From a virus (taxonomy: Duplodnaviria > Heunggongvirae > Uroviricota > Caudoviricetes), in the IMG/VR virus record IMGVR_UViG_648276647_000016, positions 1 through 34,499 of that record: 34,499 nucleotides of DNA; one strand, written 5' to 3'. Positions 1-28,303 of the stretch are shown one piece after another. Within the stretch, counting starts at the first letter, position 1; every line of letters begins with the position of its first letter. Position numbers and translations under genes: made by a program. A model generated the notes under the pieces. The model was not told where the DNA came from, ran no database searches, and worked only from the letters and a program-made list of their open reading frames with translations.

Positions 1-300
1 TGCGCGCTTACTGACACTGGTGTAATCCGGGCAGCGCAACGGAACATTCATCAGTGTAAAAATGGAATCAATAAAACCCTGTGCAGCCCGCAGGGTCAGC
101 CTGAACACGCGTTTAATGACCAGAACGGTGGTGATGGCGAGATCAGAATAGCGCTGAGGTCTTCCCCGTGATGAAGGCGTTGCCGACTCATACCAGGCCT
201 GAATAGCTTCATCGTCCAGCCAGAAAGTTATGGAGCCACGGTTGATGAGGGCTTTGTTGTAGGTGGACCAGTTGGTGATTTTGAACTTTTGCTTTGCCAC
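1..300 (-). CDS. IS903-family transposase, N-terminal 100 codons (3' part outside window)
   Basis: Hand translation of the reverse complement from a GTG at 298-300; open to the window edge. Not in the ORF track because it is truncated. Confidence 0.8.
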   Translation of the reverse strand, partial: MAKQKFKITNWSTYNKALINRGSITFWLDDEAIQAWYESATPSSRGRPQRYSDLAITTVLVIKRVFRLTLRAAQGFIDSIFTLMNVPLRCPDYTSVSKRA

Positions 301-377
301 GGAATGGTCTGCGTTGTCGGGAAGATGCGTGATCTGATCCTTCAACTCAGCAAAAGTTCGATTTATTCAACAAAGCC
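1..377 (-). mobile_element. IS903-family (IS5 family) insertion sequence, partial; outer terminal inverted repeat at 359-377
   Basis: Minus strand of 359-377 reads GGCTTTGTTGAATAAATCG, which I recall as the IS903 terminal IR. Adjacent ORF translates to VAKQKFKITNWSTYNKALINRGSITFWLDDEAIQAWYESATPSSRGRPQRY, matching my memory of the IS903/IS102 transposase N-terminus. Element continues beyond the window start. Confidence 0.85.
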
Positions 378-816
378 CCTTCAAGTTTCTAATGTAGTTG
401 TTCAGCGCGTCATACCAGTCTGCGATATTCGAGGGCTTACGTAGCGCCAGCCTGAATAAACTACTTACCTGCTGTATGAGCATAGTCAGCTTATCAAACG
501 CATCCTCGTGCACCTCAGCAAAAAACTTACCCTGGTTTCTAAGATCTGTTTCCTGAGTAACCGGCAGTTCTCGCGATATGGAAATCTGATAACCATTAGC
601 CAGTGCTTTCGACAGAATTACATTGCCGCCGTTATACCCTCCCGCACCAGTGACTGTGTAATCAGTATCAAGAGCCAGCACAGTGATATTCTCGTCAGGG
701 TCAATCACCTGCACTACTAGATCAGATTTATTGAAAACCCTAAAGGTATAAGGGAATGATGTCGTAACGCCGTTACCGGTGTATTCGTTGTGGTCAACTT
801 CGGTTGAGACCGTCAT
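367..816 (-). pseudogene. Tail fibre / tailspike N-terminal virion-attachment domain, truncated by the IS903-family insertion
   Basis: 149-aa ORF starting MTVSTEVDHNEYTGNGVTTSFPYTF, resembling phage tail-fibre N-termini. Only codons 1-146 (378-816) are phage DNA; the last three codons and the TGA stop (367-369) lie inside the IS inverted repeat. Confidence 0.6.
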
Positions 817-1011: not shown

Positions 1012-1269
1012 ATGCAGCAGTATCACTATCCACTGGAAGACGGATTTACCGAAAGGATTCACACGCCGGGAGGCGTCAGGTCACTGGTGGAGGGATCGCA
1101 CTTGATGAAATTACTCCGGGATCTCGATAAGGATGGATTTAATGTCGATGGCCCACTTGCCGAACTGACTGCACTGATTAACTACGTCACCAGCTCGCAG
1201 ATGTCTATGCAGGATCTGCAAACACATCTCGACTATTGTGCCGAACAATTACTAAAACAAACCAGATAA
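1012..1269 (+). CDS. Small antirepressor-like protein (paralogue of the C-terminal domain of the Bro-N antirepressor), LexA-box controlled
   Basis: 85-aa ORF with good RBS. Aligns by eye to residues ~150-220 of the 1585-2280 product (IHTPGGVRSLVEGSHLMKLL..DGxxVxGxxAELT..QDLQTH vs IHSPSGVLGLTENSLLMNLL..DGHDVSGAAAELT..RDIQTH). Confidence 0.6.
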   Translation: MQQYHYPLEDGFTERIHTPGGVRSLVEGSHLMKLLRDLDKDGFNVDGPLAELTALINYVTSSQMSMQDLQTHLDYCAEQLLKQTR

Positions 1270-1272
1270 GGT

Positions 1273-1315
1273 TTGAAATTACCAAGTGGAGTGCTTATAT
1301 TTACCTTTGCGGTAA
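1273..1315 (+). promoter_or_regulatory. Sigma70-like promoter (TTGAAA-N17-TATATT) with operator palindrome TTACCTTTGCGGTAA (1301-1315) over the predicted start
   Basis: Read directly from sequence; operator matches the motif found in the immunity region. Confidence 0.5.
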
Positions 1316-1407
1316 ATTTACATCGCACTCCTCTTGTGCCATAGTAATCGGGCACTGGCAAAATCCAGTGCCGGGATTGGCGTCCCGGATTACTAAAAGG
1401 CGCATTC

Positions 1408-1427
1408 ACCGCGCAAGCGGTTTTTTT
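1408..1427 (+). terminator. Rho-independent terminator (ACCGC-GCAA-GCGGT + T7)
   Basis: 5-bp GC stem with GNRA loop followed by TTTTTTT, about 110 nt downstream of the promoter at 1273-1300. Confidence 0.55.
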
Positions 1428-1584
1428 ATGCGTATAGCACGGCCACATTCGTATTATGGTGGGCTGTGTGGGGGCACCGAAAGGTGCGCCGGGTCCTTTT
1501 AGCCGGTTACGCCAACCCTGCACAGTTCACCACCAACCGATTGGCGTCGGTAGTGGTGATTAACCAGACTAAAAGGTAACCACT

Positions 1585-2280
1585 ATGACAGCTACAAAAA
1601 GCACGTCCATTTTTTCTTTCGAATCCCAAGCCGATATACGAGTAATCGTCATTAATGGTGAGCCATGGTTTATCGCTTCAGATGTTTGTCGGGCTATAGG
1701 CATAGCAAACCATCGAGATGCTGTTCGAAAACTTGATGATGATGAGAAGGGCGTCGCTTCAACCGACACCCCTGGCGGTGAGCAAGAATCGATCATCATC
1801 TCCGAGTCAGGCCTCTACACACTGATCCTCCGCTGCCGCGATGCGGTGACACCAGGCACTATCCCCTACCGCTTTCGTAAATGGGTTACAGGTGAGGTTC
1901 TTCCTCAGATCCGCCGCACCGGAAGCTACATTAAAAACTCGCTCCCGCAGGAAGAACGCATAAAGATGGTTGCCGACCAGGTTGCCAACGCCACGGCGTC
2001 AGCAGTAATGCAGGCGATGAAGATAGAGAACAAAACCTACAGCGCCCCGCTGAAGCCAGGATACCGCAGTCTGATTCACTCGCCGTCTGGTGTTCTCGGC
2101 CTGACGGAGAACTCACTGCTGATGAATCTGCTGAACCAGTTACAGGACGACGGGCACGACGTATCGGGCGCGGCGGCGGAACTGACCACCATGTTCTGCT
2201 ACATTGTCGGTGTGAGCAAATGCCTGCGTGATATCCAGACGCACGCGGAGTACATCAACGACAAGGCAGGGTTCTTCTGA
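1585..2280 (+). CDS. Antirepressor, Bro-N domain family
   Basis: 231 aa; N-terminal region (EPWFIASDVCRAIGIAN ... ESGLYTLILRCR) matches my recollection of the Bro-N/antirepressor fold. RBS AAAAGG 8 bp upstream. Confidence 0.7.
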   Translation: MTATKSTSIFSFESQADIRVIVINGEPWFIASDVCRAIGIANHRDAVRKLDDDEKGVASTDTPGGEQESIIISESGLYTLILRCRDAVTPGTIPYRFRKWVTGEVLPQIRRTGSYIKNSLPQEERIKMVADQVANATASAVMQAMKIENKTYSAPLKPGYRSLIHSPSGVLGLTENSLLMNLLNQLQDDGHDVSGAAAELTTMFCYIVGVSKCLRDIQTHAEYINDKAGFF

Positions 2281-2341: not shown

Positions 2342-2755
2342 TTATAAAGATGACTGATATTTTACAACTCTGTTCATGGCATCTTTTTTCACCGAGCTGA
2401 TATCAGTTCTTATTTTGGCTTCGTCATTACTGCTTATCATGCTATTAATTTTTTGCACTGACATGCCGTTTCTTTCAGCCATTGCACATACAGCAGCATC
2501 GTATGAAGAACTCGCTGCGATGGATATCACCTTGTTACACTCAAACACAGCACCTTCAGCAATATCAGATGCCGATGAGGCTGGCTTGGTATAAGTCTTG
2601 ACGTAGTGATCAATACAACTATCCTTCGCCGTCTTGGCAAGAGAAAAATCCATTTTAACTTTGTCGCAATATGCCTTATCAACACCGTCATAAACATCAT
2701 AGGATGTCGAGCAAGCGGATATCAAAAATACCGATAACAGCAATAATTCCTTCAT
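2342..2755 (-). CDS. Lipoprotein, AT-rich moron (candidate superinfection-exclusion protein)
   Basis: 137 aa; N-terminus MKELLLLSVFLISAC has a hydrophobic core and lipobox ending in Cys. Gene is visibly AT-richer than its neighbours. Confidence 0.6.
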   Translation of the reverse strand: MKELLLLSVFLISACSTSYDVYDGVDKAYCDKVKMDFSLAKTAKDSCIDHYVKTYTKPASSASDIAEGAVFECNKVISIAASSSYDAAVCAMAERNGMSVQKINSMISSNDEAKIRTDISSVKKDAMNRVVKYQSSL

Positions 2756-7047: not shown

Positions 7048-9557
7048 TGCGGAATATCTCCGGAGAATCTCTGACGTTTCTGTGTCAGATTAAGAACAAC
7101 GGGAGAACCATCATCTTTCAGCAGATAACCAGTACCAAGTTTCACCAGGTACTGACTATCGCCGTAACTTTGCAAACCATACTGACCAGGCGGTGTTTTT
7201 ATCCCGGAGCCGACTACTTGTTCATTCCAAGCCTGATTAATCTGCTTATCGAATTGCTCTGCAGACATTCCCCACGGCAAAAGGACATTCCCCATTCCGT
7301 TATAGTCATGCACGCCACCTGTAGCTACGTTAACAGCCTGTTTCCAGACATCATTGTCAATTTCGCCTGATACCACGCCTTTTTTCGCCATCACACCAGC
7401 GTAATAATCCTTTGCGATCTCGTATGCCATTGATGCCCCCTGAGCGTCACCAGCAAATGCATCCTTCACCATGTCAGAAAACTCAAGGCGAAGATCAGCA
7501 TCTTTAGGCATCGGAATACCTTTCGCATCATCAGTACCTTTACGAGCCGCCGCGCCAGCAAGAATTGTCTGCGCAGCGGTTTCAGGAGACACGGAAACAT
7601 CCGGATTAAACCAGTTTTTTTCTGCCAAAATACCACCAGGCTTATCCATCAGTATCCCGGCAACGGCAGCAGATGGAGCGTTGGCACTGATCTGCTGTAG
7701 TGCTGACATATACACCTGCCCACCACCAGTGCTCTGCCTGATGGTATCGAGATATGCTGCCTGTTGGGAAACTGGAGCATCACGAAAGAAAACACCGATC
7801 TGATTGGCCTCGTCTTTGGAAAAGAACGTCAGTGGAGTGCCATATGACTTAGCAAGATCACTGACCTGAGCGGCACGCAAGGCAACGCTCTGTCCAAAGT
7901 TATCCTTATTGCTCATGTCGATAGGCTTTGCCTGTCCGGAGGCAAGAGAGAACTGCACAGGATCCGACTGCCGCTGCTTTATCACCTGATTTGCAGCCGA
8001 AACAACGTTGTCATAAAGAGCTGCGCGTGCCGCATACCCCTCCCCTGTCTCACCAGTATCCGGGCGTAATTGCTCAACATATGCTGTAATGCTGCTTGTC
8101 GGCATGTTGCGGAAAGAGCCTATATACTGTCCGGCGATCTGTGTATTTCTGAACTCGGTATATCGCAGGTTTCCTTCTCTGACGCCATAAGCTGCAATAA
8201 AATCATCCTCACCAGGTGGGTTAGGGAATTCAACGCCACGCATATACGCAGCCGTCGCATCGCGAACCTGGCTGTCAATCATCGTTTTATATTCAGCCTG
8301 CTGCTGCCGACGCAGTTGATCCGCCTGTCGCATAAAACTTGCCTGCGCCTCAGGAGATGCCGCATCGAATGCTGCATTACCGGTATAGCGTTTGGTGTTG
8401 GTTGGAATTGTTGATAAACCAAGTGCTGCACTGACACCAGCAGTTAACTGCTGATCACTGTATGGCTGGTTACCGTTCTCATGATGGATAATGGCTGCAC
8501 AAAGCGCCTTCAGGGTATCAGGATTAGATGCATCGAGAGGATCATCAGCAGAAACGCCAAGTTGTTCGCACACTGCTTTGATATACGACATAGTATCATT
8601 TTTATCAGTAGGCGGTGCCCAGCGATTAATTATCTCGCTGACGGTATCAATACCCTGCCTCTGATACGACATCAGGTTTCGCCCTAATGCACGAATCCCG
8701 TGTTCAGGTGTTTCGAATTTAGCAAATCGACCATCATCACCGGTCTGGCCTACCCACGGATTAGTTTTGCTGTATTCGAGATTTCCTGGGTTATTGTTGC
8801 GTATGCCACGGGCACGCTCGGAAGAGTCACTATCTGCTACAGCACGGCGAGCTCCAGCAGCAGTATCACTTAACTCGCCATTACTTTGGATGAATGCGGT
8901 CGCATTGTTTGCCGACCACTGGGACAATGCGGCATCAGCAACCTTCTCTTTAAACTCGATTTTCTTGGCCTGGATTTGCTCGTCGCTCCAGCCATGCGCA
9001 ATGCCGTAATCCTCAATTTGCTGGAAAGTTTGCTTATTAGCCAATACGTATGCGGCATTGTCGCCATACAATGCTGCGGCATTTTTACCATTATTCAGCA
9101 GCGTCGCCTGAAACTGACCTTCTTCGTAGGCATTAATTTGCCCTATCTCGTGCCGCCCGGCCTGCGTAGTGAACTGAATGCGCTGCTGCTGTGCCTGCTG
9201 CATGAAAGCATTACGGGCCTGTTCATCCGGCAGCGACATAGCCAGTTGCTCGATCTGGGCATCAAACTGCTGCGTATACTCCTGACCTTTTCCAATAGCA
9301 TTTTTCCCTTTCAGGTTAAGCAAACCTGTTTCAGGGTTATTCAGCAGATCGCTGCTTATCTGGCTTAAGCTAAGAGAAGCATCCTGAGCCATAGCAACAT
9401 TCGCACGCTGTTTTGCCTGCGCAATAATACCTGCATATTGCTCTGCAACATCGCCAAGTACATCACCGACATTTGGTGTCTGAAACGATGAGAATCCCTG
9501 CGTCGAAATCCCTCTGCTTTGAACCTGACGGCCCGATGTTGTTGGTACAACTGGCAT
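7044..9557 (-). CDS. Internal virion protein with a putative cell-wall-degrading domain
   Basis: 837-aa ORF; contains GIRNNNPGNLEYSKTNPWVGQ...FAKFETPEHGIRALGRNL, a motif I associate with virion-associated muralytic domains of podovirus internal proteins (from memory, unverified). Confidence 0.5.
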   Translation of the reverse strand: MPVVPTTSGRQVQSRGISTQGFSSFQTPNVGDVLGDVAEQYAGIIAQAKQRANVAMAQDASLSLSQISSDLLNNPETGLLNLKGKNAIGKGQEYTQQFDAQIEQLAMSLPDEQARNAFMQQAQQQRIQFTTQAGRHEIGQINAYEEGQFQATLLNNGKNAAALYGDNAAYVLANKQTFQQIEDYGIAHGWSDEQIQAKKIEFKEKVADAALSQWSANNATAFIQSNGELSDTAAGARRAVADSDSSERARGIRNNNPGNLEYSKTNPWVGQTGDDGRFAKFETPEHGIRALGRNLMSYQRQGIDTVSEIINRWAPPTDKNDTMSYIKAVCEQLGVSADDPLDASNPDTLKALCAAIIHHENGNQPYSDQQLTAGVSAALGLSTIPTNTKRYTGNAAFDAASPEAQASFMRQADQLRRQQQAEYKTMIDSQVRDATAAYMRGVEFPNPPGEDDFIAAYGVREGNLRYTEFRNTQIAGQYIGSFRNMPTSSITAYVEQLRPDTGETGEGYAARAALYDNVVSAANQVIKQRQSDPVQFSLASGQAKPIDMSNKDNFGQSVALRAAQVSDLAKSYGTPLTFFSKDEANQIGVFFRDAPVSQQAAYLDTIRQSTGGGQVYMSALQQISANAPSAAVAGILMDKPGGILAEKNWFNPDVSVSPETAAQTILAGAAARKGTDDAKGIPMPKDADLRLEFSDMVKDAFAGDAQGASMAYEIAKDYYAGVMAKKGVVSGEIDNDVWKQAVNVATGGVHDYNGMGNVLLPWGMSAEQFDKQINQAWNEQVVGSGIKTPPGQYGLQSYGDSQYLVKLGTGYLLKDDGSPVVLNLTQKRQRFSGDIPQ

Positions 9558-18830: not shown

Positions 18831-18867
18831 TTGACATTTAACGCACAAATTATTACCTTTAGGGTAA
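18831..18867 (+). promoter_or_regulatory. Promoter-like element (TTGACA at 18831-18836) with operator palindrome TTACCTTTAGGGTAA (18853-18867)
   Basis: Resembles the PL-like promoter/operator at 28395-28438; oriented toward the tRNA module. Confidence 0.45.
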
Positions 18868-27600: not shown

Positions 27601-27663
27601 TCACCCATAAGGTAACAAAAATCAAGGATAGTTACCTATGGGGTGCATTTACCTGTTGGGTAA
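27601..27663. promoter_or_regulatory. OR-like operator cluster: TCACCCATAAGGTAA (27601-27615), TTACCTATGGGGTGC (27632-27646), TTACCTGTTGGGTAA (27649-27663)
   Basis: Three copies of the TTACC-N5-GGTAA palindrome in the 154-bp divergent intergenic region between the cro-like and repressor genes. Confidence 0.6.
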
Positions 27664-27718: not shown

Positions 27719-28303
27719 ATGAAAAGTATCCAGGACGTCCGCAGGCAAAATCTCAACGACTTGATCGACCGTGAATTCAATGGTGTTCAGACGCGGATGG
27801 CAGAAAAACTTGGAACTCAGGCAAATCTGGTAAACCGCTGGGCTCTTGGCAAGAAGGTTATCGGCGACCAGGTTGCTCGAAAAATTGAAGCTGCCGCCAA
27901 TAAACCCCGTAACTGGCTTGATATCGATCGCTCGCTTTCTCATGAAGGTTTTCAGCCTGTCGGCCCAAGCGACATTGGTCAGCTGGCGGCTCACAACCTG
28001 GAACGCTGGATGAGCGAAAGCCGCGACCTTTCAACGCAGGGAAAACTTCACCGCGCATCCGGCGTCGCCCAGGTGACAATCAGCCGCCTGTTAAACAATG
28101 AGGTCAGCGTTTCCATTTCCACCCTGGAGAATGTTGCATCCGCATTCGGGCGTCACGGATATGAACTACTGATTCACCCGCACGACCCTGCGACTATCAA
28201 CTATGACCGCTCGCGCTACGCATTGTTACCCGAAACCGAGAAAGCAAAGATTGAAAGTTACATTGAATTTGTCATCAACCAGAACGAAAAAAGCAAACAA
28301 TAA
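27719..28303 (+). CDS. Prophage immunity repressor, tandem HTH domains, no S24 peptidase domain
   Basis: 194 aa with two XRE-like HTH segments (QTRMAEKLGTQANLVNRW and LHRASGVAQVTISRLLN); no Ala-Gly/Ser-Lys autocleavage module; divergent from cro and followed by a terminator. Confidence 0.65.
   Translation: MKSIQDVRRQNLNDLIDREFNGVQTRMAEKLGTQANLVNRWALGKKVIGDQVARKIEAAANKPRNWLDIDRSLSHEGFQPVGPSDIGQLAAHNLERWMSESRDLSTQGKLHRASGVAQVTISRLLNNEVSVSISTLENVASAFGRHGYELLIHPHDPATINYDRSRYALLPETEKAKIESYIEFVINQNEKSKQ

Follow-up and report, generated by a model that had tools for sequence, protein, structure and literature searches.

In the immI region of phages P1 and P7, a promoter with a C1 operator is followed in order by a1 b1, the c4 RNA, a2 b2, icd and ant1/2, and the two phages reportedly differ in RNA specificity under a shared main repressor, a finding attributed to Citron & Schuster in 1990. 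The Ant/Rep system of Salmonella phage SPC32H is said to have been described by Kim & Ryu in 2013 and by Kim et al. in 2016, with the entries 5D50 and 5D4Z in the PDB. The locus studied here has features of both systems; it lies at positions 1,012 to 2,280 of a 34,499-nucleotide stretch of DNA from a Caudoviricetes virus (IMG/VR record IMGVR_UViG_648276647_000016, analyzed over its full length and called the window below). It encodes a short protein, Ant, and a long protein in which a Bro-N domain is fused to an Ant-like domain, with an RNA cassette between the two genes. We read the locus, with a probability of roughly 0.6, as two antirepressors under separate regulation that both use one homologous Rep-binding domain, the short one driven by the SOS response and the long one gated by Rep and by RNA.

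The SPC32H Ant is a tetramer (PMC9638917), has been co-crystallized with its repressor (PDB 5D50; PMC9638917, PMC9986798) and binds the C-terminal tetramerization domain of Rep (PMC9986798); antirepressors of this kind, including that encoded by SPC32H ant, are made after LexA cleavage (reviewed in PMC7380047, citing Kim & Ryu 2013). Ant of P1 is controlled by C1, C4 RNA and Icd (PMC8201110), and phage N15 carries both a LexA-controlled antC and a small-RNA-controlled immA operon (antA-icd-antB; PMC4488713, PMC3121763). In the isrK-orf45-anrP region of the Salmonella prophage Gifsy-1, a leaky IsrK terminator is followed by a stable RNA released by processing and by an antirepressor gene whose transcripts stay untranslated (PMC4825925; Hershko-Shalev et al. 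2016); short IsrK supplied in trans raises translation of the downstream antirepressor 139-fold (PMC4825925). For ORF4 of phage vB_EcoP_ZX5 (ZX5), the relevant passages of the published study report that overexpression brought the number of lysogens down from 1e9 to 1e6 and cut rep transcription by 75% (PMC9782041). Our reading takes from this literature the binding of Rep by SPC32H Ant, its control by LexA and the pro-lytic effect of the ZX5 long protein, and adds to them homology, RNA elements, covariation of RNA pairing, the enrichment and placement of operators, and the distribution of the cassette.

A domain shared by a short and a long antirepressor gene

The two genes and the domains of the long product are as follows.

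1012-1269, plus strand: short antirepressor gene ant, 85 amino acids (aa), orthologue of SPC32H Ant
1585-2280, plus strand: long antirepressor gene, 231 aa, with Bro-N, a helical linker and an Ant-like C-terminal domain
1633-1905, plus strand: Bro-N domain of the long gene (Pfam PF02498)
2032-2262, plus strand: Ant-like C-terminal domain of the long gene (match to 5D50_E)

Both open reading frames (ORFs) lie where a first-pass annotation, made from the sequence alone, had placed them, and the resemblance it had seen by eye between the short protein and the C-terminus of the long one is significant. BLASTP aligns residues 2-75 of the short protein with residues 150-223 of the long without gaps, 31 of 74 positions being identical (42%; E 2e-15), and the conserved string that had been written down (IH.P.GV..L.E.S.LM.LL..L..DG..V.G..AELT...QTH) appears in that alignment. 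The two proteins also match the same structure and the same family: 5D50_E (“Anti-repressor protein”) is matched by residues 2-84 of the short protein (E 4.3e-46) and by residues 150-226 of the long (E 1.9e-13), and phrog_450, labeled “unknown function” in PHROGs, is matched by both (1.1e-46 and 6.3e-36, respectively). There is no model of the Ant domain in Pfam or NCBIfam. Because the orthologue of the short protein was co-crystallized with its repressor, the earlier proposal that the shared domain is repressor-binding could be sustained.

On sequence comparison, the short protein is the orthologue of the LexA-controlled SPC32H Ant, the canonical antirepressor (87% amino-acid identity, with a ratio of non-synonymous to synonymous substitution rates, dN/dS, of 0.059); against its relatives dN/dS is 0.04-0.09, indicating purifying selection. 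At its N-terminus the long protein has a Bro-N domain (residues 17-107, 76.7 bits against a cut-off of 25.6), and its Ant-like part is likewise under purifying selection (dN/dS 0.23-0.28). The long protein is 99.6% identical to ZX5 ORF4, and the short ORF and Rep of ZX5 are 98.8% and 99% identical to their counterparts in the window.

A word-indexed homologue search with the short protein returned stand-alone relatives only, and the fusions had to be recovered by an exhaustive profile search. Across 1.84 billion representatives, only 60 clusters at 50% identity carry the Ant domain; these are mostly stand-alone proteins of 80-95 aa, and in the fusions the Ant domain is always C-terminal, behind Bro-N, AntA, pRha or ORF6N. 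Across the E. coli loci, long genes show 94-100% identity in the Ant-like domain but differ in the N-terminal part, which is one of three Bro-N subtypes (100%, ~65% and ~61% identical) or a domain other than Bro-N. Twenty positions are invariant across the short and long forms, and a crude neighbor-joining tree sets a diverse stand-alone clade apart from a fusion clade, within which the N-domain types are intermixed. The Ant-like domain is thus the constant, selected element of the long gene, and this is consistent with its being the part of the long protein that is directed at Rep. The divergence of Rep and that of Ant show no simple covariation (identity to the Salmonella counterparts, Rep 43% and Ant 87%; to those of Klebsiella, Rep 45% and Ant 61%).

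The first-pass annotation had presented the short protein as a stand-alone paralogue of the C-terminal domain of the Bro-N protein. The polarity is the reverse, and the short protein is not derived from the long one, since the short protein is the orthologue of the characterized SPC32H Ant and the stand-alone forms make up the more diverse clade; it is the long protein that is a Bro-N fusion with a diverged copy.

Several variants of the long gene were observed. In phiV10 (locus L001, 4198-4439) it is frameshifted in the middle of the Ant-like domain and annotated as two ORFs of 194 aa and 29 aa; this could be a real mutation or a sequencing error. The long ORF has in-frame ATG codons in its linker at Met142 and Met145 (window 2008 and 2017), from which a product of ~87 aa, the size of the short Ant, would start, and the databases contain “stand-alone” long-type proteins of 89-95 aa whose first residue is the corresponding Met (P0123, P0125, P0132); they may arise by internal initiation, like Ant1/Ant2 of P1, or be fragments. 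In TL-2011b (locus L102, 3772-4029, minus strand), a third Ant-like copy, 92% identical to the long-type domain, belongs to a gene annotated as “anti-repressor Ant,” which lies immediately downstream of the cassette in the opposite orientation.

Control sites and the common repressor

The sites discussed here, and the gene for Rep, are located in the window as follows.

921-935, no strand assigned: Rep-operator-like palindrome TTACCTTTCAGGTGA, upstream of short ant, one mismatch to TTACC-N5-GGTAA
973-992, plus strand: LexA box TACTGTATAAATATACAGTT, 20 nucleotides (nt) upstream of the short ORF
1273-1301, plus strand: predicted sigma-70 promoter-like site, TTGAAA-17-TATATT, 10 of 12 consensus positions
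1301-1315, no strand assigned: perfect Rep-operator-like palindrome TTACCTTTGCGGTAA, overlapping the -10 hexamer and the start region
27719-28303, plus strand: Rep, which both antirepressors presumably target; 42% identity to SPC32H Rep (E 2e-52)

The window contains 12 copies of the motif TTACC-N5-GGTAA (0.59 expected) and SPC32H has 18 (0.74 expected), the latter clustering between rep and cro; in four phages its half-sites are invariant and its spacer is variable. Because the motif is enriched, clustered around rep and invariant in its half-sites, we infer that it is the operator of Rep. Further palindromes are found in the window at 18853, 21980, 21998, 25257, 25319, 27264, 27601, 27649, 28361 and 28423, of which those at 27601 and 27649 fall between rep and a divergent cro-like gene. 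Operator-like palindromes are thus dispersed genome-wide beyond the rep-cro region, in SPC32H as in the window, which suggests a multi-operator Rep regulon resembling that of P1 C1. Rep itself is 99% identical to Rep of phiV10 and ZX5 and aligns end to end with SPC32H Rep, the C-terminal region included; its binding by Ant is predicted.

A LexA site had been proposed for the short gene, and a predicted box is indeed present at 973-992. It has two mismatches against the 20-nt consensus, is the sole such site in the window, with 0 expected, and is kept upstream of ant in phiV10, Klebsiella, Tyrion and SPC32H. The palindrome at 921-935 sits upstream of this box, as does its counterpart in SPC32H, and a LexA box and an operator-like palindrome both precede short ant in 75 of 78 loci. 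Given this palindrome, the short gene may be under joint Rep and LexA control; a consensus scan gave no confident placement of its promoter. The long gene lies, as had been noted, behind its own promoter-like site, which overlaps an operator-like palindrome, and behind a structured leader. The view of two differently regulated genes therefore stands in so far as each has its own control region, but not as a clean separation, since an operator-like palindrome is found upstream of the short gene as well.

In 73 of 74 loci the palindrome of the cassette keeps the same distance, -38, from the point where a1b1 starts. In about 30 of the 74, genes on the opposite strand separate ant and the cassette by 0.9-1.2 kb, and -35/-10-like hexamers accompany the cassette even when it is so displaced. 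The fixed palindrome despite this displacement argues that the cassette is an autonomous transcription unit.

The RNA cassette

The elements of the cassette, from its first RNA to the ribosome-binding site of the long gene, are listed below.

1339-1428, plus strand: IsrK / c4-a1b1 element, with an intrinsic terminator at its end (stem 1408-1421, then a T run)
1377-1383 and 1393-1400, plus strand: C4 target copies b1 and a1, with exact 7-nt and 8-nt complementarity to the C4 loops
1452-1537, plus strand: C4 antisense RNA, full length (Rfam RF01695, 77.7 bits against a gathering score of 45)
1495-1502, plus strand: C4 loop a', CCTTTTAG, exact complement of a1 (1393-1400) and a2 (1569-1576)
1509-1515, plus strand: C4 loop b', ACGCCAA, complementary to b1 (1377-1383) and b2 (1541-1547)
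1541-1547, plus strand: C4 target b2, TTGGCGT
1569-1576, plus strand: C4 target a2, CTAAAAGG, spanning the Shine-Dalgarno sequence that lies 9 nt ahead of the ATG of the long gene

The leader that the first-pass annotation had described is structured, but it is the known IsrK/c4-a1b1 and C4 system of the P1/N15 immI type. The Rfam isrK model scores 77.9 bits against a gathering score of 50, and the c4-a1b1 model 45.1 bits, slightly below its gathering score of 46.7. By analogy with cassettes of the P1/P7/N15 type, C4 would be released from a precursor by RNase P.

The pairing of C4 with its targets was surveyed in 89 loci. All four sites are fully paired in 75 of them, the rest being mostly alignment offsets. 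Where the loops differ, as in Tyrion, Klebsiella, EC.W1-9, HEMP4 and phiv142-3, both target copies follow with compensatory changes, and since loops and both target copies covary in this way, the pairings are not accidental. The loci contain nine combinations of a' and b' (five a-types by three b-types), each matched to its own a1/a2 and b1/b2, and a cross matrix of the nine C4 types is nearly orthogonal. That nine loop specificities occur among near-identical prophages (L018-L097 and L099-L103, at the equivalent of window 1377-1576) implies diversifying selection on what would be an RNA-level immunity. Four C4 types are found among cultured phages whose Rep proteins are at least 98.5% identical; by analogy with P1 and P7, this is the pattern expected of a second, RNA-level tier of immunity under a near-identical Rep.

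There is no icd gene in the window: the ATG of the long gene follows 47 nt past C4, with no conserved ORF between them, and some variants have an extra ORF of 168 aa without a Pfam match. With no icd, the predicted target of C4 is the ribosome-binding site of the antirepressor gene itself. A reading frame over C4 comparable to orf45 of Gifsy-1 (ORF 1456-1563) was considered and rejected, as relatives do not conserve it: the Tyrion copy ends after 15 codons, and the Klebsiella copy continues in frame into the long gene. It is therefore unlikely that the antirepressor is translationally coupled to an upstream ORF. The ATG within the 5' end of C4 that opens this frame (window 1456-1563; L103 947-1060) is also the origin of the “ash family protein” called over the C4 RNA in the ZX5 record, and of many N-terminally extended calls of the long gene at 279 aa (for example P0185 and P0192); all of these look like annotation artefacts.

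Distribution of the cassette

SPC32H has ant only, and is without isrK, C4, a Bro-N gene or a second Ant domain. The comparison with the window involves one further feature.

2309-2326, no strand assigned: GC-rich hairpin, separating the long gene from convergent minus-strand genes

The counterpart of this hairpin in SPC32H lies directly 3' of the short ant and is followed by a convergent membrane-protein gene, and the cassette of the window, made up of the promoter-like site with its palindrome, the IsrK/a1b1 element, the C4 RNA and the long gene, sits between the stop codon of ant and the hairpin. Judged from this arrangement, the cassette is an add-on inserted next to ant. It is carried by phiV10, ZX5, TL-2011b, and Klebsiella, Enterobacter and some Salmonella relatives, and by 72 of the 80 IMG/VR loci in which the short ant is 98-99% identical (the E. 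coli-type relatives); 239 of 5426 complete E. coli genomes have the module in full. In ~60% of loci the cassette starts only 73 nt past ant, and a long-type gene adjoins a short ant in every genomic context sampled. The same RNA cassette is found in 279 phage records without an upstream short ant, among them Stx phages and APSE.

Proposed working of the locus and alternatives

On the reading of two separately regulated antirepressors, the short Ant would be the SOS trigger, repressed by LexA and released by DNA damage; its tetramer would bind the C-terminal domain of Rep and break the DNA-binding Rep tetramer, leading to prophage induction. C4 antisense RNA would be processed from transcripts that read through the IsrK/a1b1 terminator, and its loops would pair with b2 and a2, the latter covering the Shine-Dalgarno sequence, to block translation of the long gene. 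With Rep on the promoter and C4 pairing at the Shine-Dalgarno sequence, the long antirepressor would be doubly blocked in an established lysogen, and it would be made when Rep and the cognate C4 are absent or outcompeted. One such case would be an incoming phage with a C4 type unlike that of the resident prophage, as in P1/P7 anti-immunity; in another, the short Ant would begin to remove Rep, whereupon the long protein would be made and set up positive feedback.

A more elaborate form of this circuit, a trigger-and-latch switch with an RNA relay, is put forward tentatively, and we regard it as rather unlikely. SOS-induced ant mRNA would read into IsrK/a1b1 and bear decoy C4 targets at its 3' end; titration of C4 by these a1b1 decoys, together with removal of Rep, would unlock the long antirepressor, which would lock Rep off by double-negative feedback, and nine or more orthogonal C4 specificities would form the second immunity tier. 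On the plus strand no intrinsic terminator is predicted from the end of ant (stop codon at 1269) up to that of IsrK (1408-1428), so that SOS-induced ant transcripts could, speculatively, supply an activator like the short IsrK of Gifsy-1, or a decoy; the many loci with insertions between ant and the cassette mean that such a read-through route cannot be general.

Several points count against, or limit, the reading of two antirepressors that act on one Rep. With only 42% identity to the short protein and a faster rate of evolution (dN/dS ~0.25 against ~0.06), the Ant-like domain of the long protein may have a different partner. AlphaFold2 gives a confident model of the Bro-N part (per-10-residue mean predicted local distance difference test score, pLDDT, mostly 82-91 over approximately residues 11-110), while its model of the Ant-like domain is unreliable (pLDDT <50). 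That phiV10 is viable and temperate despite its frameshifted Ant-like domain would indicate, if the frameshift is real, that the domain is dispensable for growth. As described in passages of the ZX5 study, the test of ORF4 used strong overexpression from the GST-tag vector pGEX-6p-1 (PMC9782041). Finally, that the long protein would work through its Ant-like domain, and not through Bro-N, on the same Rep is a step that we infer, as is the timing of its expression.

The divergence of the long domain is also what an alternative would explain in which that domain is an oligomerization module that no longer binds Rep, and the N-terminal domain acts instead, on DNA, on the repressor of another prophage or on a host target. 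Since the SPC32H Ant is tetrameric, assembly may account for part of the conserved core; Bro-N, AntA, ORF6N and pRha are typical “antirepressor” or regulator domains, and antirepressors acting on non-cognate repressors are known (PMC3121763). We nevertheless consider this unlikely, as a constant Ant-like domain (94-100%) behind freely exchanged N-domains is the opposite of what it would predict, and 20 positions are invariant across the short and long forms. A locus with a single input, in which the long gene has no promoter of its own and is reached by read-through from an SOS-driven ant, with IsrK/C4 as an attenuator, would agree with the absence of a predicted plus-strand terminator between 1269 and 1408-1428 and with the 73-nt spacing seen in most loci. 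This we judge quite unlikely, given that the hexamers and the -38 palindrome are retained in the ~30 of 74 loci with 0.9-1.2 kb of opposite-strand genes in between, and that 279 phage records have the cassette with no short ant upstream.

The adjacency of two genes for homologous, presumably tetramer-forming domains might also suggest that the short form modulates the long one through mixed tetramers, in which SOS-made Ant would activate or poison the Bro-N fusion. Yet the two copies show no sign of covariation and belong to old and distinct clades, the short form works alone in SPC32H, which is without the long gene, and the long-type domain occurs too in phages and prophages known from sequence only; we hold this to be very improbable. 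Least of all do we favor a pairing without meaning for a circuit, the cassette being one of many morons in a hot spot and the domain sharing reflecting common ancestry only. The coming and going of YafO-like toxin genes, DUF2335, a lipoprotein-like ORF and extra ORFs in the interval would accord with it, as would the frameshifted phiV10 copy, but retention of the cassette in 72 of 80 close relatives, purifying selection on the Ant-like domain and a long-type gene beside a short ant in every sampled context make it highly implausible. Two antirepressors under separate control and on one homologous domain remain our preferred reading.

Genomic context

The region matches phiV10-like E. coli podophages (genus Uetakevirus, epsilon15-like) at 95-98% identity. 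The local gene order is the tailspike gene on the minus strand, the 85-aa and 231-aa ORFs on the plus strand, and then convergent virion genes on the minus strand. The short ant has the same position, between tailspike and virion-protein genes, as in SPC32H. The interval from ant to the virion genes is a cargo hot spot. The place taken in SPC32H and phiV10 by a 46-aa membrane protein is occupied in the window by an ORF of 137 aa (2342-2755, minus strand) whose product has a lipoprotein-like signal (…LISAC); in relatives, YafO-like toxin genes, DUF2335 and other small ORFs are found between ant and the cassette or past the long gene.

The tailspike gene of the window (1-377 and 367-816, minus strand) is truncated after ~149 codons by a multicopy element that is found at 7518 places across 2299 E. 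coli genomes; the junction of tailspike and element is present in none of the E. coli genomes of the collection. The minus-strand translation of the element (VAKQKFKITNWSTYNKALINRGS...) resembles what we take to be the N-terminus of an IS903/IS5-family transposase. Given the truncated tailspike, the prophage is probably defective for adsorption.

Significance

Bro-N, AntA, ORF6N and pRha “antirepressors” are annotated by the thousands, and the role of their variable C-terminal halves is rarely known. The present analysis offers a concrete assignment, in which the C-terminal domain would bind the repressor and the N-terminal domain would be exchangeable. Two literatures are reconciled as well, since the work on SPC32H names the short protein the antirepressor and the work on ZX5 the long one, and both genes coexist in most of the phiV10-like prophages of E. 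coli (those in 239 of 5426 complete genomes). If true, a tier of RNA specificity would explain superinfection or mutual induction of related prophages with identical repressors, and would bear on prophage dynamics in E. coli, including O157 and other enterohaemorrhagic (EHEC) strains.

Comparison with known systems

Every component of the locus is of a known kind. With SPC32H the window shares an orthologous short gene (87%), its position, the LexA box, the operator-like palindrome upstream and a Rep homologue; it differs in having a second Ant domain, IsrK/C4 RNAs and a Bro-N gene, and its Rep is only 42% identical. The likeness to Gifsy-1 is in the order of an IsrK element, a C4-region RNA and an antirepressor gene, whereas the orf45-like frame of the window is not conserved and no antQ is nearby. 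As in N15, a small SOS-controlled antirepressor and an RNA-controlled anti-immunity operon are present in the same phage, and the long protein shows 44% identity to N15 gp30 over its Bro-N part; the two loci are far apart in N15 and adjacent in the window. Domain sharing between the two N15 loci was considered and rejected, the C-terminal part of gp30 having neither a paralogue in N15 nor similarity to the Ant domain.

ZX5 has near-identical copies of the long protein (ORF4), Rep and the short Ant (Li et al. 2022, PMC9782041). In the passages concerned, that study treats ORF4 as the phage's antirepressor and makes no mention of the shared domain, the RNAs or a link between the two proteins (PMC9782041); in the ZX5 record the short Ant orthologue is annotated as “hypothetical protein.” The pairing of differently gated antirepressors on one Rep-binding domain, and the modular exchange of N-domains around it, appear to be undescribed; the SPC32H papers might already mention Bro-N-fused homologues.

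The window differs from the immI region of P1 and P7 in being without icd and in having a C-terminal domain unrelated to P1 Ant, and the phage itself is an integrating podovirus, whereas P1 and P7 are plasmid myoviruses. It resembles them in its RNA families and their order, in a promoter that is overlapped by a repressor operator (predicted here) and in C4 loops directed at a ribosome-binding site; as in P1 and P7, the types of RNA specificity differ among phages that share a main repressor.

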